Shown: positions 16,728 through 54,134 of the stretch, one piece after another
Layout: the number at the start of each line of letters is the position of its first letter
How positions within the stretch are numbered: position 1 is the stretch's first letter
Position numbers and translations under genes: made by a program
The notes under the pieces: generated by a model
Databases searched by the model: none
Seen by the model: the letters and a program-made list of their open reading frames with translations, nothing else
Told to the model about the DNA's origin: nothing
Origin: Nevskiales bacterium
Lineage (GTDB): Bacteria; Pseudomonadota; Gammaproteobacteria; Nevskiales; JBOICV01
Direction: 5' to 3'
NCBI GenBank assembly: GCA_050740255.1
Contig: JBOICV010000176.1
Coordinates: 3,959-67,958, forward strand
DNA: 64,000 nt

Positions 16728-16730
16728 GCG

Positions 16731-21116: not shown

Positions 21117-21139
21117 GTCAAGCACCTGGGTAGCCAGTG

Positions 21140-21330: not shown

Positions 21331-21405
21331 GGGGAGTGGACTCCAGGGCCGGCTAAGCGCACGCTGATTGGCTAAACTTTGTCTGAGGCTAAGCGGAGAC
21401 TCGCC

Positions 21406-35129: not shown

Positions 35130-36245
35130 ATGCAGCCCAGTCCAATGGAATCGCCACGCTCGCTGTGGGGCCGGTTGACCGCGATCACGGATCTTTTTGC
35201 TTATCCGCTGCGAACCTCGCACTACGTCGAACTGGTCAACCCGCTGTGGACCACGCACAAACTGCAGGCGCGGGTGGTCAAGGTCTGGGACGAAACCAAG
35301 GACGCGCGCACGCTGACGCTCAAGCCCGGCCTGAACTGGCGCGGCCACCGCGCGGGGCAGCATGTGCGCGTGGGCATTCCGGTCGGCGGCATGCATTACA
35401 CGCGCACCTACACGATCTCTTCACCGCCGGAGCGTGACGACGACTGCTTTACCATCACCACGAAAGCGATTCTTGGCGGGCGCATCTCGCATCACATCGT
35501 GCGCCAGATCAAGGTGGGCGATTACCTGCCCATCGGTCTGCCGCAGGGCGATTTCTATCTGCCGGACGCACAGCCGGTGCAGCCGCTGTTCATCACCGCC
35601 GGCAGCGGCATCACGCCGGCGATGAGCATGCTGCGCAGCCTGATCGCGCAGGAGCGCCTGCCGGATAGCGTGCACATCCACTACTCGCCGCATGAGTTCG
35701 ACGTGATTTTCGGCCAGGAGCTGCGCCAGACGGCGCGCGAGCAGCCGCGCTACAAGCTGCACGAGATTCACACGCACGAGTACGGCGAGCTGAAGCAGAC
35801 CAAGGGCTATTTCAACGACGAGCAGCTAAACCGTCTATGCCCGGACTGGCGCGAGCGCGAGGTCTATGCCTGCGGGCCGCCGGGCCTGCTGGCCGCGCTG
35901 GAGAAGCACTTCGAGCAGGCCGGACGTACGCGCCATCTGCACATCGAGCGCTTCCTCGCCAGCTTCGCCGAAGTGCCCAAGGACGCCGTCGGCGGCCGCG
36001 TGCGCTTCGCCAAGAGCAATATCGAAGCGCAGGCGGACCACAAGACGCCGCTGCTGCGTGTGGCCGAGGATGCCGGCATGAATCCGCCGCATGGCTGTCG
36101 CATGGGCATCTGCCACACCTGCAACACCACGCTGGTGTCCGGCTGCGTGCGCGACTTGCGTACCGGCAAGATTCTGAACGAGGCCGGCAGCATCGTGCAG
36201 ACCTGCATCTGCGCCGCCGCCGGCGATTGCGCACTCGATCAGTAG
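35130..36245 (+). CDS. second FNR-type reductase with 2Fe-2S domain (DesC paralog)
   Basis: RTYTISSPP, GSGITPAMS, CRMGICHTCNT...C. GAGGAGG Shine-Dalgarno. Confidence 0.85.
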   Translation: MQPSPMESPRSLWGRLTAITDLFAYPLRTSHYVELVNPLWTTHKLQARVVKVWDETKDARTLTLKPGLNWRGHRAGQHVRVGIPVGGMHYTRTYTISSPPERDDDCFTITTKAILGGRISHHIVRQIKVGDYLPIGLPQGDFYLPDAQPVQPLFITAGSGITPAMSMLRSLIAQERLPDSVHIHYSPHEFDVIFGQELRQTAREQPRYKLHEIHTHEYGELKQTKGYFNDEQLNRLCPDWREREVYACGPPGLLAALEKHFEQAGRTRHLHIERFLASFAEVPKDAVGGRVRFAKSNIEAQADHKTPLLRVAEDAGMNPPHGCRMGICHTCNTTLVSGCVRDLRTGKILNEAGSIVQTCICAAAGDCALDQ

Positions 36246-36255
36246 AGATGAAGTC

Positions 36256-37413
36256 GTGACCACGAGATTCGGCGTAAACCTCAGCGACGCGCAGATCGAG
36301 GAATTCGGCCGCGAGGTGGATGCCATCCGCGACGAGGTTTTCGATAGCCGCGGCGAGCGCGACCGACAATACATCCTCAAAATCATCAGAACCCAGCGCG
36401 TACTGGCCTTGGGCGGGCGCGTGGTGATGTTCCTGAGCATCTGGCTGCTACCCGCCATCGGACTGCCTTACGCCGGCTGGCCGCAGTTGCTGGCCGTGCT
36501 CGGTCTGGGCGCGGCGCTGCTGGGTCTGGCCAAGATCATCGAGAACATGGAGATCGGCCACAACGTCATGCACGCGCAATGGGACTGGATGAAGGACCCG
36601 GAAATCCAGTCCAGCACCTGGGAGTGGGACAACGTCTGTCGCTCCGACCAGTGGATGCACAGCCATAACGTCGTGCATCACACCTGGACCAACGTCATCG
36701 GCAAGGATCCGGACGTGGGCTACGGCGTGCTGCGCGTGAGCACTGCGCAGCGCTGGCGGCCCAAGTTCCTGGCGCAGCCGCTCGTCAATATCCTGCTATG
36801 TCTGTTCTTCCAGTGGGGCGTCGGCGCGCACGACATCTTGTTCGCGCACAAGACCGGCGCCGGTTCGAAAAAGGTCCTGCTGCGGCGCTTCGCGTGGAAG
36901 GCTTGGCGACAGGTGCAGAAAGACTATCTGCTGTGGCCGGCCTTCGGCGCGCTGCTGACCGCGCTGGCCTGCTGGGCGATGGGCAAGGATGCCAGCACCG
37001 CAGCGCTGCCAGCCCTGGGCCTGCTGGTGGCCGGCAGTTTCATCGCCAATACGCTGCGCAACGTCTGGACCAACGTCATCATTTTCTGCGGGCACTTTCC
37101 GCAGGGGGTTCATCACTTCCGCAAGAAGGACGTCGAGGGCGAAACCCGTGCGCAGTGGTATGTGCGGCAGTTGCTGGGCTCCTGCAATATCGGCGGCGGC
37201 AAGCTCTTTCACATCCTCTCCGGGAATCTGAGCCACCAGATCGAACACCACCTGTACCCGGACATGTGCAGCAACCGCTATCCGGAGGTCGCGCCGCGTA
37301 TCCGCGCGCTGGCGTCCCGCTACGGCCTGCCGTACAACACCGGCTCGCTGGCCCGGCAGTACGGCACGACCACCTGGACTATCTGGCGGCTGGCGTTTCC
37401 GGGCGGCGGCTGA
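36256..37413 (+). CDS. membrane acyl-CoA desaturase, DesB-type paralog 2
   Basis: HNVMH, HSHNVVHH, QIEHHLYP. GTG start 10 nt after the reductase stop. Confidence 0.85.
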   Translation: MTTRFGVNLSDAQIEEFGREVDAIRDEVFDSRGERDRQYILKIIRTQRVLALGGRVVMFLSIWLLPAIGLPYAGWPQLLAVLGLGAALLGLAKIIENMEIGHNVMHAQWDWMKDPEIQSSTWEWDNVCRSDQWMHSHNVVHHTWTNVIGKDPDVGYGVLRVSTAQRWRPKFLAQPLVNILLCLFFQWGVGAHDILFAHKTGAGSKKVLLRRFAWKAWRQVQKDYLLWPAFGALLTALACWAMGKDASTAALPALGLLVAGSFIANTLRNVWTNVIIFCGHFPQGVHHFRKKDVEGETRAQWYVRQLLGSCNIGGGKLFHILSGNLSHQIEHHLYPDMCSNRYPEVAPRIRALASRYGLPYNTGSLARQYGTTTWTIWRLAFPGGG

Positions 37414-37451
37414 CGCGTAACTGAACGAATTGGATTTGTGAGGCAAAAATC

Positions 37452-38642
37452 ATGACCGCCGCAAGACTTCCCGCCAAATTACCAGTGGGGCTCACCGAAG
37501 CCCAGATCGAGGAGTTCGGCCGCGAGCTGGACGCGATCCGCGACGAGGTAATGGATTCGCGCGGCGAGCGCGACCGCGCCTATATCCTGAAGGTGATCAA
37601 GACCCAGCGCAGCCTGGCGGTGATCGGCCGCTTCATCATCTACGGCGGGTTGTTCCTGCTGCCGGCCTGGGGTCATGCGCTCGCCGGATGGGCGAGCAGC
37701 CTTTCGGTGATCGGGCTGGGCACCGCGATGCTGGGCATCGCCAAGATTCTGGAGAATATGGAGATCGCCCACAACATCCTGCACGCGCAATGGGACTGGA
37801 TGAAGGACCCCGAAATCCAGTCGAACACCTGGGAGTGGGACACGATGTCGCCTTCCGATCGCTGGATGCACTCGCACAACGTCGTGCATCACACCTGGAC
37901 CAATGTGCTGGAGAAGGACCTGGATGTCGGCTACGGCATCATGCGCGTCACGCCGATGCAGAAGTGGCACCCCTTTTACCTGCTGCAACCCCTGTTCTTC
38001 ATCACGCTCATGCTGTTCTTCGAAGAGGGCGTCGCCCTGCATGAACAGGCGATAGACGATCACATGAAGGGCAAGAAGACGCTGAAGGAAATCCTGCCGA
38101 CCCTGCGCCATATCGGCCGCAAGGTGCGCGGGCAGGTGCTCAAGGACTACGTGATGTGGCCCGGCGCCGCCCTGCTGGTCAGCATTCCGATCTCGTTTTA
38201 CGTGCCTGCTTCACCCTGGCTGGCGTTCGGGCTGGTGGCGGGCGCGAATGCGGTCGCCAACATCATGCGCAATATCTGGGCCTTCATGATCATCTTCTGC
38301 GGCCACTTCCCGGCCGGCGTGCACAACTTCACGCAAGATCAGGTTGAAGGCGAAACCCGCGCGCGCTGGTATCAGCGCCAGTTGCTGGGCTCCTGCAACA
38401 TCGGCGGCGGAAAACTATTCCATGTGCTGTCCGGAAATCTGAGCCACCAGATCGAGCATCACCTGTTTCCGGACATGTGCAGCAACCGTTATCCTGAGGT
38501 GGCGCCGCGGGTGCGCGCGCTGGCCGCCCGCTACGGCTTGCCTTACAACACCGGTTCACTCACGCGGCAGTTCGGCACCACCTGGCTGAAAAATCTGCGA
38601 CTGGCGTTTCCGGGCGGCGAGCTCCAACCGACGCCTGCCTGA
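37452..38642 (+). CDS. membrane acyl-CoA desaturase, DesB-type paralog 3
   Basis: HNILH, HSHNVVHH, QIEHHLFP. By eye about 60% identical to paralog 2. Confidence 0.85.
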   Translation: MTAARLPAKLPVGLTEAQIEEFGRELDAIRDEVMDSRGERDRAYILKVIKTQRSLAVIGRFIIYGGLFLLPAWGHALAGWASSLSVIGLGTAMLGIAKILENMEIAHNILHAQWDWMKDPEIQSNTWEWDTMSPSDRWMHSHNVVHHTWTNVLEKDLDVGYGIMRVTPMQKWHPFYLLQPLFFITLMLFFEEGVALHEQAIDDHMKGKKTLKEILPTLRHIGRKVRGQVLKDYVMWPGAALLVSIPISFYVPASPWLAFGLVAGANAVANIMRNIWAFMIIFCGHFPAGVHNFTQDQVEGETRARWYQRQLLGSCNIGGGKLFHVLSGNLSHQIEHHLFPDMCSNRYPEVAPRVRALAARYGLPYNTGSLTRQFGTTWLKNLRLAFPGGELQPTPA

Positions 38643-38705: not shown

Positions 38706-39380
38706 ATGCCTGGGCCCAAAGATCTGCTCGCCAACAATCGCAAGTGGGCTACACAGCGACGCGCGGCAAATCCTGAATTTTTCGCGCGGCTGGCGCAGGC
38801 CCAGCAACCGGACTATTTATGGATCGGCTGCTCGGATGCAAGGGTGCCGGCCAACGAATTAATCGGCCTGCCGCCCGGCGAAGTGTTCGTGCAGCGTAAT
38901 CTTGGCAACCAGTTCTTTCCGCACGACTTCAACGCGGTGGCGGTGTTGCAGTTCGCGGTGGAGGTACTCAAAGTGCGGCATGTGATCGTCTGCGGCCACT
39001 ACGGCTGCGGCGCGGTCAACGCGGCCATGCATCACGCCGCGCCGGGCCGCGGACTGGACGCCGTCAAACGCTGGATCACCGACATCCGCCGCACCCGCAT
39101 GCGCTCGCGCAAGGAATTGCTGCGCCTGGATCCCGCCGCCTGCCGGGACCGGCTGTGCGAGCTGAACGTGATTCAGCAGGTGGAGTACTTGCGCGCCTCG
39201 CCCGCCGTACGTGGCGCTTGGGCGCGTGGACAGAAGCTGTCCGTGCACGGCTGGATTTATCATCTGGAAGACGGTCTGCTGCAAGACTTGAGCGTGACCG
39301 TGAGCGGGCTCAAGGACAAGCCGCTGCGTTTCGCGCGCGAGGCAAAAACCGAAGCACCGCTCCGCCGGCGAGCGAAATAG
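38706..39380 (+). CDS. beta-class carbonic anhydrase
   Basis: LWIGCSDARVPANE...VFVQRNLGN...VIVCGHYGCGAV zinc-ligand pattern. Confidence 0.88.
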   Translation: MPGPKDLLANNRKWATQRRAANPEFFARLAQAQQPDYLWIGCSDARVPANELIGLPPGEVFVQRNLGNQFFPHDFNAVAVLQFAVEVLKVRHVIVCGHYGCGAVNAAMHHAAPGRGLDAVKRWITDIRRTRMRSRKELLRLDPAACRDRLCELNVIQQVEYLRASPAVRGAWARGQKLSVHGWIYHLEDGLLQDLSVTVSGLKDKPLRFAREAKTEAPLRRRAK

Positions 39381-39457: not shown

Positions 39458-40240
39458 TTACTTCCCGGAGAATTTGCCCGGCCGGCGCTCCATGAAAGCG
39501 CGCAAGCCCTCCTGCATATCTTCGGATTTCATCAGCGGAATCAGATCGGGCAGCAGCCGCGCAAAGGCGGCATCTTCGCCCTGCCGGCGTACCAGGCGCG
39601 CGGATTTCAGCGTCGCGTAAACGCCGAGCGGCGCCTGCGCGGCGATGGTCTGGGCGATTTGTAACGCGCGTTCCAGTTGCTTACCCGGCTCCACCACTTC
39701 CTGCACCAGTCCCAGGCGCAGCGCTTCGGCCGCGTTGATTTCATCTGCCGTCAGCAGATAACGCATGGCATTGCCCCAGCCGACTTCCTGAATCAGCCGC
39801 ACGGTAGCGCCGCCGACGGGATAAATGCCGCGCTTGACCTCAATCTGGCCGAAGCGGGTATCAGACGCGGCGACGCGGATGTCGGTGGCGAGCAGCAGTT
39901 CAATGCCCAGCGTCAGACAGAGGCCTTGCACGGCCATGACCAGCGGCTTGCTGACGCGCCTGGCATCGTCGGCGCCGAGGGGATCGAGCCCGCCCGGCGG
40001 CGGATCGGGGAATTTCCCCGCGGAAAACGTCGCCGCCCATTTCGGCAGGTCGAGGCCGCCGGTGAAATGATCGCCGTGCGCGAACAACAAGCCGCAGCGC
40101 AGGTTCTGATCCTGCTCAAGCTGGCCGTAGGCCGCGCCGAGCTCCTGATACATCTCCAGATCGAAGGCGTTGCGCTTTTCGGGCCGGTTGAGGCCGATCA
40201 GCAGGACTTGACCACGGACTTCAGTAGTAACTTTGCTCAT
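39458..40240 (-). CDS. enoyl-CoA hydratase/isomerase (crotonase) family protein
   Basis: LLIGLNRPEKRNAFD...FTGGLDL...crotonase fold. Start at ATG 40240. Confidence 0.85.
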   Translation of the reverse strand: MSKVTTEVRGQVLLIGLNRPEKRNAFDLEMYQELGAAYGQLEQDQNLRCGLLFAHGDHFTGGLDLPKWAATFSAGKFPDPPPGGLDPLGADDARRVSKPLVMAVQGLCLTLGIELLLATDIRVAASDTRFGQIEVKRGIYPVGGATVRLIQEVGWGNAMRYLLTADEINAAEALRLGLVQEVVEPGKQLERALQIAQTIAAQAPLGVYATLKSARLVRRQGEDAAFARLLPDLIPLMKSEDMQEGLRAFMERRPGKFSGK

Positions 40241-40247
40241 TGATTTT

Positions 40248-41324
40248 TTACCTCGCTGGAATGGGTAGACGCGCAAACGCCGGCGCCGTCAGGCTGCCGA
40301 GATACAGGTATTCGCCGTAAGGCTCGGCGCTGGTGATGGGCGCGAAGGCGTCATGCGACGCGTCCTGCAGGTTGTGAATGACCTTGCCCTCGCTGTCGAG
40401 CGCGAGCACGAAGGCGTGATGCACTGGCTTGGGCTGCAGCACTTTGGGCAGGCGCATCATCAGCTTGCGGAGCCACGGCTTGTCGGCGGCGACATCGATC
40501 GCCGGATTGCGCGGTGTTACCAGCGCGAGCCAGAAGTTGCCGCGCTCGTCCCCGGTGATGCCATCCGGCAGACCCGGCAGGTTGGCGAAGAATACGTCGA
40601 AGCTGCCGGCCGGCTCCCCCTTCAGCCAGTAACGCAGCACATTGTAGCTGCCGGTTTGATTGACCAGCACGAAGCTTTCGTCAGCAGCGAGCGCGACGCC
40701 ATTCGCGAATTGCATCCCGGCAAGCAACACACTCGTGTTGCCGCTAGCCGGATCGTACTTCAGCAAGCGGCCGTGGCCGCCATGCTCGAGAATGTCGTCC
40801 ACTCCGACATGCGGGTGATAGCCGAACTTGCTCGATGCGTCCGAAAAATAAATCATGCCGTCGCCGGCGACTTCGACGTCGTCGGCGAACTTGATCGGAA
40901 CGCCCTCCGCTTCGGTCGCCAGCACCTTGAGCTGGCCGTCCGGCGCGATGGACAAGAGCCCGCGCACTGCATCCGCCACGATTAAATTCCCCTGCGCATC
41001 GAAGTCCAGGCCGAGCGGGCGGCCGCCGGTGTTGACGATGACCTGCGGGTTGCCGCCGTTGACGTCAAAGCGCACCAGCCGGCCGTCCTTGTAGCCGACA
41101 TAAATCTGCCCCTGCGCATCTAGCGCAACGTCCTCCGGACCGACGCCGGCATCCACACCCAAACGTTCTACCTTGGTCAAGGCGTCATTGACTGCATAAG
41201 GCCCGGCCAAAGCCGGCGCGGGTGGTGGTGTCCAGGCCACCGGTTCGATTGGCACCGGCCAGAAAAACAGGTAGGCGAGGGCGGCGATGACGACCGCGCC
41301 GATCAGCAGCAATATGTTGCGCAT
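40248..41324 (-). CDS. strictosidine-synthase-like / SMP-30-gluconolactonase-type beta-propeller with N-terminal TM anchor
   Basis: TM helix, then GPEDVALDAQGQIYVG..DGRLVRF...GRPLGLDFDAQGNLIVADA...MIYFSDAS propeller repeats. Confidence 0.8.
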   Translation of the reverse strand: MRNILLLIGAVVIAALAYLFFWPVPIEPVAWTPPPAPALAGPYAVNDALTKVERLGVDAGVGPEDVALDAQGQIYVGYKDGRLVRFDVNGGNPQVIVNTGGRPLGLDFDAQGNLIVADAVRGLLSIAPDGQLKVLATEAEGVPIKFADDVEVAGDGMIYFSDASSKFGYHPHVGVDDILEHGGHGRLLKYDPASGNTSVLLAGMQFANGVALAADESFVLVNQTGSYNVLRYWLKGEPAGSFDVFFANLPGLPDGITGDERGNFWLALVTPRNPAIDVAADKPWLRKLMMRLPKVLQPKPVHHAFVLALDSEGKVIHNLQDASHDAFAPITSAEPYGEYLYLGSLTAPAFARLPIPAR

Positions 41325-41337
41325 GGGTTCTTCGACT

Positions 41338-42411
41338 TCAAGGTTTAAGCAGGCTGGCGTCAATATCGCTCAAACGCGTACAACCTGCCAGCGCCATGGC
41401 ATCCGACAATTCCTGACGCAGAATCTCAAGCACTCGCACCACGCCGGCTTCGCCATCCACCGCCAGCCCCCACAACACCGGGCGGCCGATCAGCACCCCG
41501 CGCGCGCCGAGCGCCAGCGCCTTGAGTACATCCGCGCCGCGCCGCACACCGCCATCCACGTAAATCTCGCAGGCTCCCTGCACCGCCGATACCACATGCG
41601 GCAGCGCCGCAACCGTGGCGGGACTGGTATCCAGCTGCCGACCGCCGTGATTCGATACCATCACCGCCTGCGCGCCATGCTCAGCGCAACGGCGTGCGTC
41701 ATCGCCGCGGCAGACGCCCTTCACCACCACCGGCAGTTTGGTGGCGGCGCACAGCCATTCCAGATGCCGCCAGGACAAGGCGCCGTCGAATAGCGTATTG
41801 ACGTAGGCCGCCAAACCAGAGCCCTCGACTTTGGGGAAGTCGCCTTTGCCCGCCGGCACCACATTCTCTACCGCTAGGCCAGGCGGCAACTGGAAGCCAT
41901 TGCGGGAGTCACGCTCGCGATTACCCCAGACCGGCGCGTCCACCGTGAGTACGATCGCCTCCGCTCCGGCGGCTTCGGCACGCGCAATTAAATCGCGCGT
42001 CACGCCGCGGTCTTTATAGATGTAAAGCTGAAACCATTTGGGGCTCGCTGCTTCGCGAAACACCTCTTCCATCGCGGTGTTGGACAGTGAGCTCAGAATG
42101 AACAAAGTACCCGCTCGCCTGGCTGCGCGCGCGGCGGCAATCTCGCCCTCCTTGCAGGCGAGTTTATGAAAAGCCGTGGGCGCAATCAGAATTGGCATTG
42201 AAACCGGACGTCCGAGCACGGTCGTTTCGAGTACGCGCGGCTCGACACCGGCCAGCACGCGGTAGTAAATCGGGATGCGCTCCCAGGCCGCGCGGTTTTC
42301 GCGCAGCGTCACTTCGTCCAGTGCGGCACCGGCGTAGTACTCGTAGACCTCTTTCGACAGACGACTGCGCGCAGCTTCCGCGTAGTCCGCGAGATTCAGC
42401 ATATTGCTCAT
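41338..42411 (-). CDS. FMN-dependent alpha-hydroxy-acid oxidase/dehydrogenase (LldD/glycolate-oxidase family)
   Basis: 357 aa. ..SNHGGRQLD.. and a GADV...IGRP C-terminal FMN-phosphate motif. ATG overlaps the upstream gene stop (ATGA). Confidence 0.88.
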   Translation of the reverse strand: MSNMLNLADYAEAARSRLSKEVYEYYAGAALDEVTLRENRAAWERIPIYYRVLAGVEPRVLETTVLGRPVSMPILIAPTAFHKLACKEGEIAAARAARRAGTLFILSSLSNTAMEEVFREAASPKWFQLYIYKDRGVTRDLIARAEAAGAEAIVLTVDAPVWGNRERDSRNGFQLPPGLAVENVVPAGKGDFPKVEGSGLAAYVNTLFDGALSWRHLEWLCAATKLPVVVKGVCRGDDARRCAEHGAQAVMVSNHGGRQLDTSPATVAALPHVVSAVQGACEIYVDGGVRRGADVLKALALGARGVLIGRPVLWGLAVDGEAGVVRVLEILRQELSDAMALAGCTRLSDIDASLLKP

Positions 42412-44735
42412 ACGACTGGTGATTCCCTAGGTAGCCGCCAGCCCTGCCAGGCCAGCGGCAGCAGAATTAGCAGGCAGGCGGCGAGCAGCATAAAGCTCTG
42501 CCAGGTGTAGCGCAGATCGCTCCAGTGCTCGAACAGGCTGAAGTACTGTCCCACACAGAGTGCGCAAAGTACGGCAATACCCCAGCCGAAAGTTCTTGCT
42601 GGTGTTTGTGCGTCGGCGAGCGCCAGTGGCAGCAGAAAAATGAAATGGCAGTAATAGTTGGAAGGATAGAACAGGAAGGGAATAGTCAGCAGGCCGATAA
42701 GCGTGACCTGATGCACCTCGCGGCCGCGGCAGGCGAAAGCCGCCAGTAACAAGACGCCCGCGATAATCGTGTAGGTGAGCGGACGGCGTGCCGCGTAGGT
42801 TTGCTGCTGCGTGCGCTGCCATTCCACCCATGGCTCGGGATGATCGCGCCGCAATACATGCTTGGCGGCGAGCGCGGGATCGTAGGACATGACGTTGCGC
42901 AGGCCAACGTTATTTATGCTGGGGCCAGTTGCGTGAATTTCTATTTTTTCGAGCCAGTTACCCCAAGCGCCTTGCCAACCGAAGAGTGCCGAGCTCGCGG
43001 CGACCAAGGCAATCACCGTCGCCACCGCGCCCAGCCCGGTGCGTATCGTCGTCGCTTGCTCCTGCCACAAGCTTTCCCAGGCCGGGCAGCGCCGTGCGCG
43101 CAATTGCTGCAGACCCCACCACAGCAGCGGCAGAGCCAGAAAGAAAGTGGCCATAGCTGGGAAGGCGCGAATCAAGCCGGCATAAGCGAGCAGGCCGCCA
43201 CCCAATACCCAGCGCCGATTCTTTAGCGCGCAGGCGCCGAGACCTAGCGCGACCAGCCAGTCCTGACGCAGGGTCGAGCCCATCAGATTGCTGCCGAAAT
43301 TATAGAAGTCAGTGACGCCAAACAGGATGGCGGAGTAAAGCATCACGCGCAGCCCGAAGCTGCGATAGACCACGAAAAACAATAGTACGATCAGAGCTGG
43401 GTCAATCAGCCCCGCAAGTGACAACGTCCACTCATTGGCCGGCAGCTCATGAAATAGCAGCCATGCGCCGAGTATCCAAACCGGCGTGGCGTTGCCGCCG
43501 TGATCTTGCATGCTGCCGAGGTAATCGGCGTCGCCCATAGCGCGCTGCAGATACAGCATGTCCTGTGTGAATTCCTGCCAGCGTGTCTGTGTAAAACGGC
43601 CGCGCACAGCCAACACTTCCGCGGCGACCTCTGGCGCGTAACGCATATCGTTGGTCTTCAAGTCGCGCAAGCGCACACCATTCATTCGATCCAAGGTCGC
43701 GCCTGGCGTGTTGTCGAGATAGGCGGCAAGACTGGCGAGGTACAAACCATCGAAACGCAGTTCCGGAAAATACTTGGCTACCGGAAAGTAGTGGCGCATG
43801 TCGAAGGTATGCACCAGAGTGCGCCGACCTTTGGCCTGATCCCGGAACTGCGGCATGCCGAAGTGGTAGTAGCAGCCCACCGCCACAACCGCGAGCGTAA
43901 TCAGCAGCGCCGTCAGCATGCGCCGATCGGACTGCTGTCCGGGTCTTGCAAAAGCTTCACGCAACGCAATCGTGCCGGCGATCAGCGCGACGGCGGCGCG
44001 CAGAGCGGATTCACCTTCGAAGAACGGATAGTGTCGGAAATAGTGGTAGGCAACCCAGAGGGTCGCGGCGAGTGCGGCCGCCAGCAGTCCCCAAGTGAAT
44101 TTGCGCGGTGCGCCACGTTGCAACAGCACGAACAACACCAGCAGTGCGGTGGCCAGCGCCAGACTCGCACGGCTGGTTTCCATTTCATTCAGAAACCAGG
44201 CGCGTTTGAACGGGGCTTTCGAGCCCTCCGCCGGACATTGCTGCGCGACGCCGAACTCGGCAACGCTGTAGCGGCCGTCGCCGCCTTGGGCGCTGAGCCG
44301 CAGGTAGCGCGCAGTGACGTTAATCGTGGCGTGCCGCAGCCGCAAGCCTGCGCCAGCCACCGCAACTGCGGTCCACAGCGGCTGAAACTGCTGACCGTCG
44401 AATGAACCGGAAACCAGATACTCGTCGTTATTGTCGCCCTGCAGCCAGATGCAGCGTAGCGCGAGCGGTACACCGAGGTCATAGTCAACATAGGCCTCCG
44501 GCGAGGCCAGGTGCGCACTGTGCTCCGATAGCCAGAAAGCGCCCTCACGCGTGCCGGTGCCGTCGGTAATGCGCCCGGCGTTGGCCACACCGAAGGCCTG
44601 TGGCGGTAGCTCCGCGAGCAAGTTATTCGGACTGGGGGCAGCTTGCGCGCAAACGCTTGCAAGCAGCAGCGATATGGTGACGATGACTAGCTGTACAGGC
44701 CTGGGAATCACGTGTTCGTCTAGAATGGAACGCAA
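42408..44735 (-). CDS. large polytopic membrane protein with N-terminal periplasmic discoidin (F5/8 type C)-like domain; function unknown
   Basis: 775 aa. Signal peptide; a ~130-aa segment (ITDG...WLS...YVDYDLG...YLRLSAQGGDGRYSVAEFGV) that looks like a discoidin jelly-roll; then more than 12 predicted TM helices. Confidence 0.6.
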   Translation of the reverse strand: MRSILDEHVIPRPVQLVIVTISLLLASVCAQAAPSPNNLLAELPPQAFGVANAGRITDGTGTREGAFWLSEHSAHLASPEAYVDYDLGVPLALRCIWLQGDNNDEYLVSGSFDGQQFQPLWTAVAVAGAGLRLRHATINVTARYLRLSAQGGDGRYSVAEFGVAQQCPAEGSKAPFKRAWFLNEMETSRASLALATALLVLFVLLQRGAPRKFTWGLLAAALAATLWVAYHYFRHYPFFEGESALRAAVALIAGTIALREAFARPGQQSDRRMLTALLITLAVVAVGCYYHFGMPQFRDQAKGRRTLVHTFDMRHYFPVAKYFPELRFDGLYLASLAAYLDNTPGATLDRMNGVRLRDLKTNDMRYAPEVAAEVLAVRGRFTQTRWQEFTQDMLYLQRAMGDADYLGSMQDHGGNATPVWILGAWLLFHELPANEWTLSLAGLIDPALIVLLFFVVYRSFGLRVMLYSAILFGVTDFYNFGSNLMGSTLRQDWLVALGLGACALKNRRWVLGGGLLAYAGLIRAFPAMATFFLALPLLWWGLQQLRARRCPAWESLWQEQATTIRTGLGAVATVIALVAASSALFGWQGAWGNWLEKIEIHATGPSINNVGLRNVMSYDPALAAKHVLRRDHPEPWVEWQRTQQQTYAARRPLTYTIIAGVLLLAAFACRGREVHQVTLIGLLTIPFLFYPSNYYCHFIFLLPLALADAQTPARTFGWGIAVLCALCVGQYFSLFEHWSDLRYTWQSFMLLAACLLILLPLAWQGWRLPRESPVV

Positions 44736-44796
44736 TCAAAGTTAATGGCTTTCGTACCGTTACCGGCAACACAGAGTCCGCAGCGGCGGACTGCGT

Positions 44797-46350
44797 ATGG
44801 CTTCAACACAAAAACTCCATTTCCGGCTGCATTACCTCTTGGCGGGACTCGCGCTGGTTGTCGCGGCCGTGCTGTGGGCACAGACACCTCTGACGCTGGA
44901 CGATGCCTTCATCTCTTACCGGTATGCGCGAAACCTGGTTCAAGGTCAGGGCCTGGTCTTCAACAGCGGCGAGTTGGTCGAAGGCTACACCAATTTTCTA
45001 TGGGTACTGATCGCCGCGTTGGCGATTGCATGTAAAGCCGATCCGTTCGCGGCGACGCGGCTGTTGGGAGTGCTCTCCTACGGAATTGGAGTTCTGTTCT
45101 GCGCGCAAGCCTTGTACGCGACGGCACCACAGCGCATTTCCAGCCTGCTGCTCGTGGCATTTTTGGGTATGTTGCTGCTGCCCGATGGCTTGCTGGCCGC
45201 CGTCGGCACCGGCCTAGAAACCGCTTTCGTCGGCACGCTGGGCATTCTGCTCGGCTTAAGCCTGTTTGTTTGGTCTGAACGAATCCGCGCCGCATATCTC
45301 ATAGCCGCAGGCACAGCGCTAATCCTGCTCTTGACGCGGCTCGACGCCGTATTGCCAGTGGCCGCAGCGGGCTTGGTGTTCTGGCTTAGTCGCCTGCCAA
45401 ATGGCGTGCGCTCTGCAACTTGGCACACCGCCGTACAGTTCGCCATTCCGGCGCTGGGGCTGATTATCTATTTGCTCTGGAAAATCAGCTATTACGGCGA
45501 ACTGCTGCCCAATACCTACTACGCCAAGGGCGGCGATCTCTGGTCCTGGGAGCAAGGAAAGGCTTATCTGCGGTCGTTCCTGTCCAGTAATCCTCAAGTT
45601 GCAGCCGCTCTGCCGCTGGCGTTTCTGGCTGCTTTTGCCGCTGACGCGCCCACATGGCGCAGATTCGCTCAATATGCGTTGCTGACCGTCCTGCTGCGTT
45701 GCGCTTACGTTGGGAAAGTCGGCGGGGATTTCATGCAGTATCGCTTCATCTGGGAAACTTATCCGCTGCTTATTTGCGCTGCCGCGATCGGGCTGGGCAA
45801 GCTGGCGAGCCTAACAGAACCGCTGTGGGCCTTTGCTCTGGTATTAGTCTGCCTGGTATTGAGTGCGCAGCCCGCGACCCTGGACAATAAGTTCGGACAA
45901 CAGTGGCCGGACGAGATGGATCGCTATGCACGCGAAGGCCAGCAGGTTGGCAAAGCGCTGTACGCGGTTCTGCCAGAAAACACGGTCATTGCTACCACGC
46001 TGGTAGGCACCTTGGGTTACTACACTAACCTCAAAATCGTTGATCAGTGGGGACTCACTGACAGGTTTATAGCCCACATGCCCGTTTCTCGTATCGTGAC
46101 GCGCGGCCATGTCAAATTCGCGCCACAGGAATATCTACGTTCGCGCGGTGTCAATCTGTATATTGCTCACCCGCAACTGTGTTCCTGCAGTCAACCATGT
46201 ACCGAGGCCTTGCCCAATGTATTCATACGAGTGGAACGCGACTTGTGTGTGCGCAGCTGGTACTTCGGGCAGACGGACGATTTGACGCGTCATTTCTGCA
46301 GCCACCCCCAAAACTTCGTCCTGCATAACATCATCTGCCCGAGCTCCTGA
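44797..46350 (+). CDS. polytopic membrane protein, GT-C-fold glycosyltransferase-like (DD motif after TM1)
   Basis: 517 aa. TLDDAFISYRYARNLVQGQGLVFNSGELVEGYTNFLW after the first helix recalls the DDx loop motif of GT-C enzymes (e.g. Emb-type arabinosyltransferases). About 11 further hydrophobic helices. Confidence 0.5.
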   Translation: MASTQKLHFRLHYLLAGLALVVAAVLWAQTPLTLDDAFISYRYARNLVQGQGLVFNSGELVEGYTNFLWVLIAALAIACKADPFAATRLLGVLSYGIGVLFCAQALYATAPQRISSLLLVAFLGMLLLPDGLLAAVGTGLETAFVGTLGILLGLSLFVWSERIRAAYLIAAGTALILLLTRLDAVLPVAAAGLVFWLSRLPNGVRSATWHTAVQFAIPALGLIIYLLWKISYYGELLPNTYYAKGGDLWSWEQGKAYLRSFLSSNPQVAAALPLAFLAAFAADAPTWRRFAQYALLTVLLRCAYVGKVGGDFMQYRFIWETYPLLICAAAIGLGKLASLTEPLWAFALVLVCLVLSAQPATLDNKFGQQWPDEMDRYAREGQQVGKALYAVLPENTVIATTLVGTLGYYTNLKIVDQWGLTDRFIAHMPVSRIVTRGHVKFAPQEYLRSRGVNLYIAHPQLCSCSQPCTEALPNVFIRVERDLCVRSWYFGQTDDLTRHFCSHPQNFVLHNIICPSS

Positions 46351-46354
46351 AACC

Positions 46355-47779
46355 ATGCGTCAGACCAAAGTCGTAGCGACGCTCGGTCCCGCCACCGACC
46401 GCCCCGGCGTACTGCGCGAATTGGTCGGGGCTGGAGTAGATGTGGTGCGGTTGAATTTTTCCCATGGCGTCGCCGACGACCATAAAAAGCGCGCTGCGGC
46501 AGTGCTTGCCGCGGCCGAGGAACTGAAACGCGACGTCGGTATCCTCGGTGATTTGCAAGGCCCCAAGATCCGCATCGAATCTTTCCGCGGCGGCGGCGTG
46601 GAACTGAGCGAAGGCCAGGACTTCACGCTGGACGCGGGTCTGGCGCACGATGCGGGCAACGTCCACGTCGTGGCGACGAGTTACACCCAGTTGCCGCAAG
46701 ACGTACGCACCGGCGATGTGCTGGTGCTCAACGATGGCGCGATCAGCCTCGAGGTGCAGGAGGTGGCGGGCAGCCAGGTGCGCTGCAAGGTCGTGGTGGG
46801 CGGCCTGCTCACCAATCGCAAAGGCATCAATAAACTGGGCGGCGGCTTGTCGGCCGAGGCGCTTACCCTCAAGGATCGAGACGATATCCGGCTGGCGGCC
46901 GAAATCGGCGTGGATTTTCTGGCCGTGTCCTTCCCGCGCAGCGCGGCGGACATGCAGCTCGCGCGCCGGCTTTACAGCGAAGCTGGCGGCCGCGGCCAAC
47001 TGGTCGCGAAGATCGAGCGCACGGAAGCGGTGACTCAGCTCGACGCGCTGCTGGCAGAGAGCGATGCCGTCATGGTTGCGCGCGGCGATCTGGGCGTGGA
47101 AATCGGCGATGCCGAATTGCCCGGTGTGCAGAAACGCATCATCGCCGCGGCGCGCGAGCAGAACCGCCTGGTGATTACCGCCACGCAAATGATGGAGTCC
47201 ATGATCGCGAGTCCGGTGCCGACCCGGGCCGAGGTGCTGGACGTAGCCAATGCGGTAATGGACGGCAGCGATGCGGTGATGTTGTCGGCCGAGACTGCGG
47301 CCGGCAAGTATCCGGTGAAGGCGGTGCAGGCTATGTGTCGTGTCTGCATCGGCGCAGAGCGCCAGCAGGTGACGCAACGTTCGGCGGCACTGCTGACGCG
47401 TCATTTCGAGCGCACCGACGAAGCGATTGCCATGGCCGCGATCTACACCGCGCAGAACATGCGCGCCGGCGCCATCATCGCGCTGACCGAGTCCGGCGGC
47501 ACCGCGATCTGGATGTCCCGCGCCGCGACCACGATTCCGATTTACGCGCTGACCCGGCACGAGCATGCGCGCCGCCGGCTGGCCTTGTGCCGCGGCGTTT
47601 ACCCGGTCGAGTTCGATCCGTCCAGTCTCGACGGTGTGGTAGCGGTACGCGAGGCGATCAGCTGCCTGAAAAACAAGGGCCAGTTGCGCGACGGCGAGCG
47701 TGTGCTGATTACCAAGGGCGATTTGGACTCCATCGGCGGCACCAATGCCATGAAAGTCGTGAAAGTGGGCGAGATTTGA
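46355..47779 (+). CDS. pyk: pyruvate kinase
   Basis: MRQTKVVATLGPATD...VDVVRLNFSHG...MVARGDLGVE; 474 aa. Confidence 0.95.
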   Translation: MRQTKVVATLGPATDRPGVLRELVGAGVDVVRLNFSHGVADDHKKRAAAVLAAAEELKRDVGILGDLQGPKIRIESFRGGGVELSEGQDFTLDAGLAHDAGNVHVVATSYTQLPQDVRTGDVLVLNDGAISLEVQEVAGSQVRCKVVVGGLLTNRKGINKLGGGLSAEALTLKDRDDIRLAAEIGVDFLAVSFPRSAADMQLARRLYSEAGGRGQLVAKIERTEAVTQLDALLAESDAVMVARGDLGVEIGDAELPGVQKRIIAAAREQNRLVITATQMMESMIASPVPTRAEVLDVANAVMDGSDAVMLSAETAAGKYPVKAVQAMCRVCIGAERQQVTQRSAALLTRHFERTDEAIAMAAIYTAQNMRAGAIIALTESGGTAIWMSRAATTIPIYALTRHEHARRRLALCRGVYPVEFDPSSLDGVVAVREAISCLKNKGQLRDGERVLITKGDLDSIGGTNAMKVVKVGEI

Positions 47780-48183
47780 CCGCACGCACCGGACATTGCT
47801 TGTGTGGCGCAGTGCAATTCACCGCCAGCGGCGCACCGCACAGCGTCGGCCATTGCTGTTGCAAGATGTGCCAGACCAGCGTCGGCGCAGTAGCCGTGAC
47901 CTGGGCCACCTTCCCGGCGACGGCGGCTGAAATTCGCGGCGAGACGCTGAGTTGGTATCGCTCATCGAAGCGAGCCGAACGAGGTTTTTGCAATCGCTGC
48001 GGCGCCAGTCTCGCCTGGCGCAAGCTCGACGGTAAATACATTGACCTTACCGTCGCCTTATTCGATCAGCCAGACGATTTGCCGCCTACGTACGCCATCT
48101 GGGCCAGTCGCAAGCCGACCTGGCTCAAACTGGACGAGCACCTGCCGCAGCACGCCGAGCAGGCGCACACCGAGCCGGAGTAG
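47776..48183 (+). CDS. GFA (glutathione-dependent formaldehyde-activating / CENP-V) family protein
   Basis: GHCLCGAVQF...CCCKMCQ...FCNRCGASL zinc-Cys pattern. The only available start is TTG 47776, in a TTGA overlap with the pyk stop. Confidence 0.7.
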   Translation: MTARTGHCLCGAVQFTASGAPHSVGHCCCKMCQTSVGAVAVTWATFPATAAEIRGETLSWYRSSKRAERGFCNRCGASLAWRKLDGKYIDLTVALFDQPDDLPPTYAIWASRKPTWLKLDEHLPQHAEQAHTEPE

Positions 48184-49011: not shown

Positions 49012-49082
49012 GCAAGCTCTCCTGAAAGACGTCCGGCGCGCAGTATAGCCTCGGCATGAAAACTTCATGCCAGGGGGCTAGA

Positions 49083-50912
49083 ATGACCAGCAAACCCAAG
49101 GAAATTCATATGGCCGGTGATGAGGCAGGACAGAACAGCAGGCCGTTCGGTGGGCTGGCGATATTGGCCGGAATCCTGTTCGTGACGGGTGCTGTGGCCG
49201 CAGGTTTGTGGGCCTATCGCGATCAGGTGACGCCGGGCGGCACTCTTGAGGAAACGCTGGCCGTGCTGGAAGATCCCAGCGCCCAGCCCAAGCGCCGCAA
49301 ACCAAAACGTGAAACGGTGGCTGAGGAAACCGCGGCCGGGGAGCTTGGCGCGGACGCACAAGTTGCGGCCGGCGCAGAACCACCACCCGCGGCCGTACCG
49401 GCCAGCACTGGGCTTTATCCGCCGGAAGCCACGGCGGAAGCCGCCGCGCACCTGTGCTTCTTCTCGTTCAACAACCCGGTCGAATACCAGCAGTTCAAGC
49501 GCTTCATCGCCTCCATACAGCCGAATACGCCGATCAAACTCAGCGTGGCCGAGTACATCGCCAACGACGCCGATGTCGAGGACGCTTTCCTCGCGGTGCT
49601 GAACTCCGGCGTGAAATGCGACGGCGTGGTGCTGTCCGGTCACCATACCGACGAGTTTTACGGCGATCGCAGCTCCGGCGACATGGACTTCGATTTCCTC
49701 GAGGAGCAGGCCTGCAATCCGCGCCACGCGGCGTGGTTTTCACATGTGAAGGCGCTGTGGCTGCAGGGTTGCAATACCGTCAAGACCAAGATGCTCAATG
49801 ACGAGGTGGATTCGGACGAGCGCATTCACGGCTCGCCCTTGCCGATGATGACCGGCCTGATCCGCGTCAACGATCTCGAGGACGGGCTGGAAGACGCGCG
49901 TGACCTGCTGGAGGAGAATCTCAACGACGAGAATCTGGTCAACGACTATATGCGGATTTTTCCCACCGCCACGGTGTTCGGCTGGAGTTTCATGGCGCCC
50001 GGCGAGAAAGCCGGCTCGCATTACTCGATGCCTTATCACGTGGCGCAGGTGTCGCATGTGCTGAATCCCGCGGAGGAGTTTTTCGCCAATCCAATGAAGA
50101 GCGAGATTCCGGCGGCGTCCGCGCAGCATTACGCCGCGGCGCTATACGGCATGCTGACGCGCCCGGCCACTGCGGGCGCCGATCCGATTCCCGGCATGAA
50201 CGAGGACAGTTTCATCCTCGGCTGGCGGCGGCACGGCGATTTCCGTTTCAAATGGGCGCTGGACAATCCAGACCTGCGCGGCTATCACTCGCTGTTGAAC
50301 GCGGATAACGAGATCAATCGGCAGCTCAAGGGACTGAATTGCCTGCTGCAGGCGATCGACGACAAGCGAGTCAATGGCGAAAGCGTCGCGTCCGTCGCCG
50401 ATTACGCGCTCGCTCAGGAATCGCTGATACCTTTCACCAGTTACACGCTCGCCGCGCTGGCGCGGAACTCCGGCGGCAGCTTGCGCGCGCGGATGCAGGA
50501 CAACGCCACGCTAATGGGCTATCTGCAACGCGCTGCCGCGGCTGAGGGTTATCGCGGCAACGACGCCAGGAGCCTGCTGGCTTATCTGCGACCGGCGGAT
50601 GCGGATCAGGCGGTGGGCAGTGCTGCAGTATCGGAAGATGTAAGCACTGCAGCCAACGCGCCGGCCGAAGTTCCGGCGCAGCCTGCGTCGGCGGATGAAG
50701 CCGAGCCTCCGCCGGTTGATGATGCAAGCGTACCAGCGGCAGAGTCGGCTTCTGAGCCTGAGCAGGCCGCGCCGGCGCCGGTGGTAAGGCCGCCTGCCGC
50801 AAACGAGGTGAGAGCACCGCCGCGCGAGGCTACCCGCTCTGCCAAGCGCAAGCGCGTAACGCTCGCGCCGGTGCTCGGCAGCGAGGACGCCGTCTCCTAC
50901 GACGAAGATTGA
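49083..50912 (+). CDS. membrane-anchored hypothetical protein with caspase-like His/Cys arrangement and Ala/Pro/Glu-rich tail
   Basis: One TM helix (GGLAILAGILFVTGAVAAGLWAY). HLCFFSFNN strand; VVLSGHH then, 43 residues on, LWLQGCN. Start uncertain (49056, 49083 or 49110). Confidence 0.6.
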   Translation: MTSKPKEIHMAGDEAGQNSRPFGGLAILAGILFVTGAVAAGLWAYRDQVTPGGTLEETLAVLEDPSAQPKRRKPKRETVAEETAAGELGADAQVAAGAEPPPAAVPASTGLYPPEATAEAAAHLCFFSFNNPVEYQQFKRFIASIQPNTPIKLSVAEYIANDADVEDAFLAVLNSGVKCDGVVLSGHHTDEFYGDRSSGDMDFDFLEEQACNPRHAAWFSHVKALWLQGCNTVKTKMLNDEVDSDERIHGSPLPMMTGLIRVNDLEDGLEDARDLLEENLNDENLVNDYMRIFPTATVFGWSFMAPGEKAGSHYSMPYHVAQVSHVLNPAEEFFANPMKSEIPAASAQHYAAALYGMLTRPATAGADPIPGMNEDSFILGWRRHGDFRFKWALDNPDLRGYHSLLNADNEINRQLKGLNCLLQAIDDKRVNGESVASVADYALAQESLIPFTSYTLAALARNSGGSLRARMQDNATLMGYLQRAAAAEGYRGNDARSLLAYLRPADADQAVGSAAVSEDVSTAANAPAEVPAQPASADEAEPPPVDDASVPAAESASEPEQAAPAPVVRPPAANEVRAPPREATRSAKRKRVTLAPVLGSEDAVSYDED

Positions 50913-51561: not shown

Positions 51562-52884
51562 ATGCAACCGGAACGAAGGAGGGCCATTCTGGCGCTGGCG
51601 CTGCCGACCATCGGCGGCATGATGTCGCAGAACGTCCTGAACCTGATTGATACCGCGATGGTCGGCGCGCTTGGACCGGCCGCGCTGGCCGGTGTGGGTT
51701 TCGCCAGCTTCCTGAACTTCTTTGCGTTTGCCGCCATTGCCGGTCTGGCCAATGCGGTGCAGGCCATCGCCGCGCGCCGTTATGGCGAAGGCAGGTTCGA
51801 AGAAACCGCCTTGCCGCTCAACGGCGGTCTGCTGCTGGCCTTGGTCATCGGCGCGCCCTTGTCGGCGCTGCTGATTCTGACCGCGCCCTGGTACTTCCCG
51901 CTGCTCATCAATGATCCGGAAGTGGTGCGCGAAGGCTTGCCCTATCTCCAGTTGCGCCTGCTCGGCATCACCGCCATCGGCATGAACTTCGCCTTCCGCG
52001 GCTATTGGAACGCGGTCAATCAGGCGCGGGTATATATGCAGACGCTGCTGATGATGTGCGCGCTGAACATCGTGCTGAACTATCTGCTGATCTTCGGCAA
52101 GCTCGGCCTGCCGGCGCTCGGCACCACCGGCGCCGGTTTTGGCACCATGATCTCGGCCTGGCTGGGCACGGCCTATTACTTCTACCTGGCGCACCGGAAA
52201 ATCCGCTCGGGCGGATTCCTGCACCGCTGGCCCGACCGCGTGCAGATTCGCGCCTTGCTGAAACTGGGCCTGCCATCCTCCACCCAGCAGTTGTTTTTCG
52301 CCGGCGGCTTCGCGGTGATGTTCTGGATCATCGGCCAGGTCGGCACGCCGGAGCTGGCGGTCGCCAACGTGCTGGTGAACATCACCCTGGTGGCGATACT
52401 GCCCGCGCTGGGTTTTGGGCTGGCGGCGTCGTCGCTGGTCAGTCATGCGCTGGGCCGTGGCGATGCGGCGGACGCGCATCGCTGGGCCTGGGACGTGGTG
52501 AAAATCGGCGCCTTCGTGTTTATTGCACTCGGACTGCCAATGATGTTCTTCCCCAAACTCGTGCTGTCTGCATTCCTGCACGAAGCTGAATTGCTGGAGC
52601 TGGGCGAGCTGCCGCTGCAACTGGCGGGCTTCGGCATCGCGCTGGATGGCGTCGGCCTGATTCTGATGCACGCACTGCTGGGCGCCGGCGCCAGCGCCTC
52701 GGTGATGGCGGTGGCCATCATTCTGCAATGGGGTTTGTTCCTGCCCTTCGCCTGGTGGCTGGGGCCGCATCTGGGTTTTGGCCTGACCGTGATCTGGCTC
52801 GCGTTTATCGGCTACCGCGCGATTCAATCCACGCTGTTCACCCTGTTATGGGAGCGGCGCGCCTGGATGGCTATTCGGATATAA
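51562..52884 (+). CDS. MATE-family efflux transporter
   Basis: 440 aa, 12 TM. ILALALPTIGGMMSQNVLNLIDTAMVG N-terminal MATE signature. Confidence 0.9.
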   Translation: MQPERRRAILALALPTIGGMMSQNVLNLIDTAMVGALGPAALAGVGFASFLNFFAFAAIAGLANAVQAIAARRYGEGRFEETALPLNGGLLLALVIGAPLSALLILTAPWYFPLLINDPEVVREGLPYLQLRLLGITAIGMNFAFRGYWNAVNQARVYMQTLLMMCALNIVLNYLLIFGKLGLPALGTTGAGFGTMISAWLGTAYYFYLAHRKIRSGGFLHRWPDRVQIRALLKLGLPSSTQQLFFAGGFAVMFWIIGQVGTPELAVANVLVNITLVAILPALGFGLAASSLVSHALGRGDAADAHRWAWDVVKIGAFVFIALGLPMMFFPKLVLSAFLHEAELLELGELPLQLAGFGIALDGVGLILMHALLGAGASASVMAVAIILQWGLFLPFAWWLGPHLGFGLTVIWLAFIGYRAIQSTLFTLLWERRAWMAIRI

Positions 52885-54104: not shown

Positions 54105-54134
54105 TGACCTAAACTCCTCTACCGGAAGCCGCAT

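Follow-up and report, generated by a model that had tools for sequence, protein, structure and literature searches.

Do closely packed genes for two large membrane proteins and three enzymes constitute one envelope pathway, or do they lie side by side for other reasons? This question is raised by a locus in a 64-kb window (the whole stretch of DNA analyzed here) from a metagenome-assembled genome (MAG) of the Nevskiales, where a 775-aa membrane protein, a flavin mononucleotide (FMN)-dependent oxidase, a strictosidine-synthase-like propeller and a crotonase are encoded on the minus strand, and a 517-aa membrane protein is encoded divergently on the plus strand. The initial annotation regarded the five genes as one system that could build or remodel an envelope glycolipid or polymer. 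Based on comparisons of loci combined with profile and structure searches, we propose that the region is best read as a mosaic, composed of a 775-aa protein from an orphan family with a variable slot next to its gene, an AftB-like GT-C glycosyltransferase, and a remnant metabolic cluster with a presumably housekeeping crotonase. Taken jointly, i.e. an AftB-family 517-aa protein, a periplasm-facing 775-aa enzyme, a variable slot and an ordinary metabolic trio, we consider this reading probable.

The neighborhood is not conserved. In none of 80 genome loci of other species was the oxidase, the propeller or the 517-aa gene found within 10 kb of a homolog of the 775-aa gene, and the block of 775-aa gene, oxidase, propeller and crotonase recurs only at L001 and L085, two loci of close relatives (775-aa protein 70% and 73% identical). 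L001 lacks the 517-aa gene; in it, pyruvate kinase directly adjoins the 775-aa gene, and between its oxidase and propeller lie 464 nt and an open reading frame (ORF) on the other strand. The divergent pair of 775-aa and 517-aa genes is shared only by locus L086, with a spacer of 67 nt and with the adjacency of the 517-aa gene to pyruvate kinase. As the flanking genes (pyruvate kinase, carbonic anhydrase and desaturases) are syntenic in L001 and L085 too, shared ancestry explains the block in these relatives. When neighboring ORFs were clustered de novo, no partner recurred at over 18 of the 83 loci of 775-aa homologs; Ser/Thr kinases were the commonest, ahead of a DsbA-like protein, an ABC ATPase, GH113 and DUF2079. 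Approached from the enzymes, the picture is the same: about 25 soil-metagenome loci with 64-73%-identical oxidase orthologs have no 775-aa gene, propeller or crotonase, and the propeller orthologs in Alcanivorax and in another Nevskiales genome have other neighbors. At L135, the order is oxidase (72.6% identical), aldehyde dehydrogenase, a hypothetical gene and propeller (65%), with neither a 775-aa nor a 517-aa gene; hence, the oxidase-propeller linkage is older than, and independent of, the membrane proteins. This linkage would predate the arrival of the 775-aa gene, and the adjacency of the trio to the membrane proteins would represent lineage-specific synteny, with co-transcription being possible. 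The initial annotation had named adjacency confined to this genome as grounds for refutation, and this is essentially what the loci show. A single system of five genes is thus not supported, nor is the link drawn between the enzymes and the membrane proteins, and the envelope-glycan role assigned to both membrane proteins is plausible on the separate evidence given below.

What, then, does the tight packing signify? The arrangement itself is as first described. The 775-aa gene (42408-44735, minus strand, with a TTG start according to the NCBI annotation) ends in a 4-nt ATGA overlap with the start of the oxidase gene (42408-42411; junction GTATGAGC). Next, 13 nt separate the stop of the oxidase (41338-42411, minus) from the ATG of the propeller at 41324 (40248-41324, minus), and 7 nt separate the propeller stop from the ATG of the crotonase (39458-40240, minus), the likely start of which is at 40240, within a listed ORF that reaches a TTG at 40276. 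These boundaries are taken from the ORF list and junction reads, and a promoter and terminator scan found no terminator-like sites between the minus-strand genes. The divergent orientation of the 517-aa gene (44797-46350, plus) was likewise recovered, with a spacer of 61 nt by sequence read (44736-44796) instead of the 62 bp given initially; a consensus scan found no sigma-70-like promoter in it, and a repeat search and an Rfam scan returned nothing informative. Overlooked in the initial annotation was pyruvate kinase (46355-47779, plus; Pfam PK and PK_C), which starts only 4 nt past the stop of the 517-aa gene (46348-46357); in L086, the two genes as called overlap by 4 nt. This glycolytic gene may be co-transcribed with the 517-aa gene and is a neighbor, outside any glycan function. 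As the 517-aa gene is packed just as tightly with pyruvate kinase, tight packing is uninformative about shared function here and does not mean it in this genome.

The 517-aa protein is identical to NCBI ACRETN_14290, named 'hypothetical protein', and no Pfam model covers it. Profile and model evidence nevertheless converge on a well-supported assignment as an AftB-family GT-C glycosyltransferase. A profile built from 38 homologs matches the cryo-EM structure of AftB (PDB entry 9dlf) with an E of 3e-36 over profile positions 21-352, and the NCBIfam model beta_arabfuran_tase matches the protein with an E of 8.8e-8; its score of 30.6 bits falls far short of the 1050 bits required of an equivalog, which makes it a distant member of the family and not an AftB ortholog. 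The AlphaFold2 (AF2) model has a predicted local distance difference test (pLDDT) score of 95.6 and retrieves AftB as its top Foldseek match (E 3.4e-10, TMq 0.64), further matches being ALG9, OST/STT3, ArnT, AglB, PglB, AftA and DPY19 (all with probability 1.0), with 24 GT-C matches at E ≤ 1e-3. In the first loop, LDDAFISYRYARNL...GYTNFLW is found, which had reminded the initial annotation of the DD motif of GT-C enzymes. This resemblance is borne out, as D35-D36 (nt 44899-44904) are invariant in the 38 sequences, lie just ahead of helix 37-48 and align to D61-D62 of AftB, where D62 of the DD motif is the essential catalytic residue (PMC12041299). In the HMMER alignment, D62, T91, E172, R221, T274 and R372 of AftB correspond to D36, T65, E141, R181, T240 and R316, and all of these AftB residues beyond D62 contact the donor (PMC12041299). 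Within the family, E141 and R316 are invariant and conservation reaches at least 90% at T65 and R181, the positions rated being these four and D36.

AftB, the mycobacterial terminal beta-(1->2)-arabinofuranosyltransferase of the GT-C(A) type (PDB 9dlf/9dlh), which we take to belong to CAZy family GT89, hence shares with the 517-aa protein the fold, the placement of the DD motif (tip of juxtamembrane helix 1), the five donor-contacting residues and a C-terminal periplasmic domain, which is alpha/beta in the 517-aa protein. The two differ in that sequence identity is about 20%, in length (517 aa versus 617-669 aa) and in that the host is a Gram-negative gammaproteobacterium without arabinogalactan and with no donor genes in the window. 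By analogy to AftB, the 517-aa enzyme would work at the periplasmic face and transfer a sugar carried on polyprenyl phosphate to an envelope glycan, with Asp36 as the putative catalytic residue and Arg181 and Arg316 presumably holding the phosphate. The donor sugar would most likely be a pentofuranose such as D-arabinofuranose. A homolog at L136 (43% identity) is located in an operon with genes for a PMT-like GT-C, a UbiA-family prenyl-phosphate transferase and DprE1-like and DprE2-like enzymes, and in mycobacteria the UbiA, DprE1 and DprE2 set makes decaprenyl-phospho-arabinofuranose, the lipid-linked arabinofuranose donor. No donor-pathway genes were found near the 517-aa homologs at L137 and L138. 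AftB-type enzymes with an intact active site thus occur in Gram-negative bacteria, in places beside a DprE1/DprE2-type donor pathway.

The L136 locus (2849-12794; ENA ERZ27280176, contig k141_7651911) belongs to a MAG. It holds four GT-C-type genes, i.e. one TMEM260-like, two AftB-like and one PMT-like, followed by the UbiA-family, DprE1-like (384 bits) and DprE2-like (201 bits) genes of a mycobacterial-style arabinofuranose pathway. In our window, a MATE-family transporter is encoded 5 kb from the 517-aa gene (51562-52884, plus). MATE proteins serve as donor flippases in GT136 three-component systems; such a role was rejected here and the gene is probably unrelated, as it is syntenic in L001, which has no GT-C.

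What is the 775-aa protein? It is identical to NCBI ACRETN_14285, a 'hypothetical protein' of a Nevskiales MAG, and has at least 531 homologs in a database clustered at 90%. The family comprises 3,583 clusters (50% identity) at E ≤ 1e-3, 1,124 of them at E ≤ 1e-30. Among GTDB species representatives, the matches are nearly all in MAGs of Myxococcota (Polyangia), with few in Acidobacteriota, Verrucomicrobiota and Pseudomonadota, a patchy distribution that suggests horizontal spread. The Nevskiales and Polyangia proteins are about 50% identical, with a mean column identity of 59% in the close set A1. In the AF2 model (mean pLDDT 87.8), a signal helix is followed by a beta-sandwich, four transmembrane (TM) helices, a loop of 128 residues and then about 12 more helices. 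Together with the Foldseek and Pfam results below, this agrees with the signal peptide, discoidin-like domain and more than 12 TM helices read from the sequence at the outset. According to AF2 secondary structure and hydropathy, the core has the polytopic build expected of a GT-C glycosyltransferase (8-13 or more TM helices with an extracytoplasmic loop region).

The beta-sandwich spans residues 45-165 (strands 46-164; nt 44241-44603, minus). Foldseek places it with modules of the CBM32, fucose-binding and discoidin kinds at an E of about 1e-4 (probability 1.0, TM-score to target 0.6-0.72). The Pfam model F5_F8_type_C scores 19.4 bits, under its gathering cutoff of 28.2, on the 775-aa protein itself and matches 28 of 35 family members, distant ones included. 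The N-terminal domain is hence a CBM32/discoidin-type carbohydrate-binding module (CBM), predicted to be periplasmic. For the core, no match was obtained in Pfam (35 members) or in NCBIfam (46 members), both at E ≤ 1, and a profile search of the PDB with the family at E ≤ 10 yielded no relative. Comparisons by hhalign to single PMT-like and TMEM260-like proteins were not significant; the alignment to the PMT-like protein is collinear, at a probability of just 0.4%. The sensitive profile and structure searches that the initial annotation had called for thus placed the 517-aa protein in the AftB family and returned no match for the 775-aa core. The 775-aa family is large and previously undescribed, and has neither a Pfam or NCBIfam model nor a solved relative for its core.

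Because the protein carries a signal peptide (ending …CAQA/AP) and a periplasmic CBM, and because the short loops after TM1 and TM3 are rich in Arg and Lys, we infer that the CBM and the large conserved loop after TM4 (residues 290-417; nt 43485-43868, minus) both face the periplasm. Conservation was assessed in alignment A3, which holds 46 diverse family sequences at a mean column identity of 27%. The loop contains the motif H309-x-x-[D/E]312-x-x-H-Y-x4-K321-Y-x-x-E325, as well as D392 and D411-H412-G413. An acidic residue (D or E) occupies position 312 in 45 of the 46 sequences, H309 is present in 44, and K321, E325, D392 and G413 are found in all. The invariant residues cluster in this loop, where the best-conserved residues of the core lie, and in later ones; they are K321, E325, Y332, W386, D392, G413, P418, W420, D445, G486, R490, G513, R523, P526 and N608. 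The VHTWDMRHYFPVAKYF motif recalls the loop-1 motif of PMT enzymes, a resemblance that serves as a lead only. In the AF2 model, residue 312 is positioned at the start of helix 310-321, the first helix past TM4. In all GT-C(A) enzymes, the first juxtamembrane helix has a catalytic Asp at its tip (PMC12041299), and TM4 of the 775-aa protein may be equated with TM1 of these enzymes. Residues 290-417 constitute a candidate periplasmic active-site region.

We propose that cleavage of the signal peptide would leave the CBM32/discoidin module in the periplasm, tethered to the polytopic core, and that the enzyme, most probably a GT-C-like transferase using a lipid-linked sugar, would have as its substrate a polysaccharide or glycolipid to which the CBM is bound. 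A polytopic core combined with a periplasmic beta-sandwich CBM is also present in GT136 ORF12 of Citrobacter youngae, in EmbA/B/C and in AftD, and ORF12, EmbC and AftD are GT-C enzymes that use the CBM to hold the acceptor (PMC11127046). The 775-aa protein may further resemble the CBM-fused GT-C enzymes in the conserved acidic residue after a TM helix. It differs from them in that its CBM is N-terminal and of the CBM32/discoidin type, in the three extra TM helices ahead of the candidate catalytic loop, and in that its core has no detectable sequence or Foldseek similarity to solved GT-C structures.

Does the surrounding of the 775-aa gene point to glycans? What separates pyruvate kinase from the 5' end of the 775-aa gene varies among the related genomes, making this space a variable 'glycosylation slot'. 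The AftB-like gene occupies it in the window and in L086, L001 has nothing there, and L085 has a co-directional DUF2079-DUF2079-GT2-methyltransferase-GtrA cassette, in which the GtrA gene stops 24 nt ahead of the 775-aa gene. Such arrangements are reminiscent of the three-component systems GtrA/GtrB/GtrC, CsbB/GtcA/YfhO and polyprenyl-phosphoribose synthase with MATE and GT136. In L085, the 775-aa gene is immediately preceded, in the same orientation, by the GtrB-like GT2, GtrA-family and DUF2079 genes, and in L052 a cluster of GT2, DUF2079, PMT-like and AftB-like genes lies beside the 775-aa homolog. The window differs in holding only the GT-C component (the 517-aa protein), with no synthase and no dedicated flippase. 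Across the family, 13 of about 86 loci have a GT-C-type gene (DUF2079, AftB-like or PMT_2) no more than 10 kb away, as a raw count, and 5-6 of the loci have a GT2 gene.

The gene order at L052 is myo-inositol-1-phosphate synthase, 775-aa homolog, sugar epimerase, a DUF4143-domain gene, PMT_2, AftB-like, PMT-like, GT2 and DUF2079, with four genes of GT-C type (PMT_2, AftB-like, PMT-like and DUF2079), a combination that recalls the actinobacterial machinery for phosphatidylinositol-anchored lipoglycans. This locus (8607-21771) is on a closed Deltaproteobacteria/Myxococcota MAG (CP064976.1), and the inositol synthase, 45 nt upstream of the 775-aa homolog, is found in L052 only. In L136, an AftB-like GT-C ends in a CBM of the subtype seen in the 775-aa family and marked by DNNDxY and GGDxxYS (hmmsearch E 2e-7); by hhalign, the probability is 88% with a diverse profile and only 6% with a shallow one. 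The L136 paralog that carries it is 647 aa long. The family is very large, strongly conserved and repeatedly found near lipid-linked-sugar machinery. Taken together, the slot, the GT-C-type neighbors and the shared CBM subtype suggest, short of proof, that the 775-aa protein is a periplasm-facing enzyme acting on a glycan beside lipid-linked-sugar transferases. A literature search on DUF2079 and on discoidin-GT-C fusions in Myxococcota returned nothing relevant.

Downstream of the 775-aa homolog, one clade of Myxococcota encodes a GH113-family glycoside hydrolase that is convergent with it at a distance of 60-540 nt and starts with a signal or anchor (L002, L003, L006, L007, L009, L011-L013, L028, L032 and L041; e.g. 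L002:10401-11495), often with an outer-membrane efflux protein nearby.

The three remaining enzymes were correctly named at the outset, as Pfam and NCBIfam uphold all three calls. The oxidase matches Pfam FMN_dh over profile positions 1-349 of 350 (E 2.6e-136, 454.7 bits), and among PDB entries it is closest to L-lactate oxidase 7f22 (E 9e-122) and to the spinach and human glycolate oxidases (E about 1e-104). It has no signal peptide and scores under every NCBIfam equivalog cutoff; by sequence, it is assigned as an FMN-dependent (S)-2-hydroxy-acid oxidase of the glycolate/L-lactate oxidase type. The propeller matches Pfam SSL_N, Str_synth and SGL, is six-bladed and of the SMP-30 type, and carries an N-terminal membrane anchor; its nearest solved relatives are plant strictosidine synthases and a rice SSL protein. 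Orthologs at 60-65% identity, named 'SMP-30/gluconolactonase/LRE family', are widespread in Alcanivorax, Nevskiales and Pseudomonadales. The crotonase has an enoyl-CoA hydratase/isomerase fold and no signal peptide, matches Pfam ECH_1 (E 1.8e-40) and NCBIfam NF005126 (383 bits versus a cutoff of 261), and belongs to the PRK06563 subfamily, with EchA19-like hydratases as nearest solved relatives. It is 92-95% identical in L085 and L001, where the 775-aa protein reaches only 70-73%, as would fit a housekeeping gene. The trio thus strongly matches glycolate/L-lactate oxidases, SSL/SMP-30 propellers (e.g. of the membrane-anchored APMAP type) and EchA19-like crotonases, and differs from these known kinds in its clustering with membrane proteins, which is confined to three related genomes. 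To our knowledge, none of these enzyme types acts in glycan assembly. The three would be ordinary metabolic genes and should not be annotated as envelope biosynthesis.

In two related loci, L135:1881-6071 (JGI 3300063079) and L134:1-2940, the FMN_dh oxidase, the aldehyde dehydrogenase, a 212-aa hypothetical protein with an N-terminal anchor and the SSL propeller are packed together and may form a small catabolic operon in related gammaproteobacteria. The window has neither the aldehyde dehydrogenase nor the 212-aa gene. A crotonase also adjoins the 775-aa homolog in Polyangia loci L064, L077, L078 and L083; being 28% identical, convergent and restricted to one clade, it was judged coincidental.

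Several observations weigh against the proposed mosaic and the sugar-transfer role within it. All members of the 775-aa family derive from MAGs, and 85% of the loci have no glycan gene near the 775-aa homolog. Among the top 50 Foldseek matches of the 775-aa model in the PDB, there are only CBM32 modules and no membrane enzyme, in a search in which the whole-model query was swamped by CBM32. Likewise, hhalign of the family to AftB-like and DUF2079 profiles detected nothing; as the control of AftB-like versus DUF2079 was equally negative, this comparison has no power and was rejected as evidence. The donor-synthesis genes UbiA, DprE1/2, GT2 and GtrA are absent from the 64-kb window, so that the AftB-like enzyme is without a visible donor supply here. 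Finally, the window, L001 and L085, i.e. all three related genomes, retain the 4-nt overlap between oxidase and 775-aa gene, so that the two may be co-expressed and, possibly, functionally linked in this lineage.

How far can the proposal be carried? If the 775-aa proteins represent a new class of periplasmic glycan-building enzymes, they would found a new CAZy-type family and would point to a conserved envelope glycan in Polyangia. A more specific version, which we put forward only tentatively and hold to be rather unlikely in its full extent, is that the 775-aa proteins are a new family, possibly with a fold new to the PDB, of CBM32-tethered enzymes that face the periplasm, use lipid-linked sugars and help to build an arabinofuranose- or mannose-containing envelope lipoglycan. 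Their partners would be AftB-like, PMT-like and DUF2079 GT-C enzymes, donors would be supplied by GT2/GtrA or by UbiA/DprE1/DprE2, and the hosts would be Gram-negative, namely Myxococcota and a few Gammaproteobacteria. If true, this machinery would be a counterpart of the actinobacterial machinery for arabinan and lipoarabinomannan; at L052, the cluster even starts with the inositol synthase gene.

Alternatively, the 775-aa protein may act on an envelope glycan and not be a GT-C enzyme at all, i.e. it may be a Wzy/WaaL-type polymerase or ligase, an acyltransferase that modifies polysaccharides, or a glycan exporter or scaffold with the polymer bound to its CBM. We regard this as the minority view, possible at a low probability. 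The lack of a structural or profile match to any GT-C speaks for it, as does the large periplasmic loop with invariant Arg, His and Asp, which resembles Wzy/WaaL-type enzymes, and the GH113-family glycosidase that adjoins the gene in 9-11 Myxococcota loci, in the manner in which hydrolases accompany synthase and export systems. However, Wzy_C, acyltransferase and transporter models gave no match in Pfam and NCBIfam (35 to 46 members, E ≤ 1), and the identity of about 50% across phyla is unlike the highly divergent Wzy and ligase families. Moreover, the acidic residue that starts the first helix after the TM helix fits GT-C enzymes, and the recurrent neighbors are GT2 and GtrA, i.e. makers of lipid-linked monosaccharide donors, not Wzx or initiating transferases. 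A GT-C-like role in the periplasm is hence preferred.

The retained overlap could also mean that the 775-aa gene and the oxidase have become newly coupled in this Nevskiales group, with the rest of the family working without such a partner, e.g. by tying expression of the envelope protein to hydroxy-acid oxidation. In favor of such coupling, the ATGA overlap has persisted in three genomes despite divergence of the 775-aa protein to 70-73% identity. However, pyruvate kinase, carbonic anhydrase and the desaturases are equally syntenic, so that shared ancestry explains the retention; there is also no biochemical rationale, and the comparison covers just three genomes. We consider this improbable. 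Least credible, and in our judgment very improbable, is a five-gene pathway in which the trio makes or tailors an acyl or hydroxy-acid substituent that the membrane proteins transfer onto an envelope glycolipid or polymer: the overlap conserved in L001 and L085, the short, terminator-free 13- and 7-nt gaps and a membrane-anchored propeller that could work at the envelope would suit it, but the block is absent from all 80 other-species loci and the roughly 25 oxidase-ortholog loci, the 517-aa gene is missing in L001 and L085, the propeller and oxidase are interrupted in L001 and linked without membrane proteins in L135, the oxidase and crotonase have no signal peptides while the membrane proteins are predicted to expose their conserved parts to the periplasm, the crotonase is housekeeping-like in its conservation, and pyruvate kinase is packed equally tightly.

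Some minor features of the window remain to be described. The GC content dips slightly at 42-46 kb (0.60 versus about 0.63); this was not used as a sign of transfer, as the codon content of membrane proteins can explain the dip. Long ORFs at 46331-47785 (minus; 484 aa, antisense to pyruvate kinase), 43500-44405 (plus) and 35812-36458 (minus) are GC-rich antisense artifacts, not genes. A 618-aa protein without a Pfam match is encoded at 49056-50912 (plus), with Ala/Pro/Glu-rich low-complexity regions at both its N- and C-terminal ends; its counterpart in L001, also without a Pfam match, has 578 aa and is 76% identical. At 35130-38642, two paralogous membrane fatty-acid desaturases are encoded in tandem after a ferredoxin-NAD(P) reductase (FAD_binding_6/NAD_binding_1/Fer2), and next to them lies the gene of a beta-class carbonic anhydrase (38706-39380). 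A third desaturase is located 14 kb off (52926-54134), and this desaturase arrangement is syntenic in L001 and L085.

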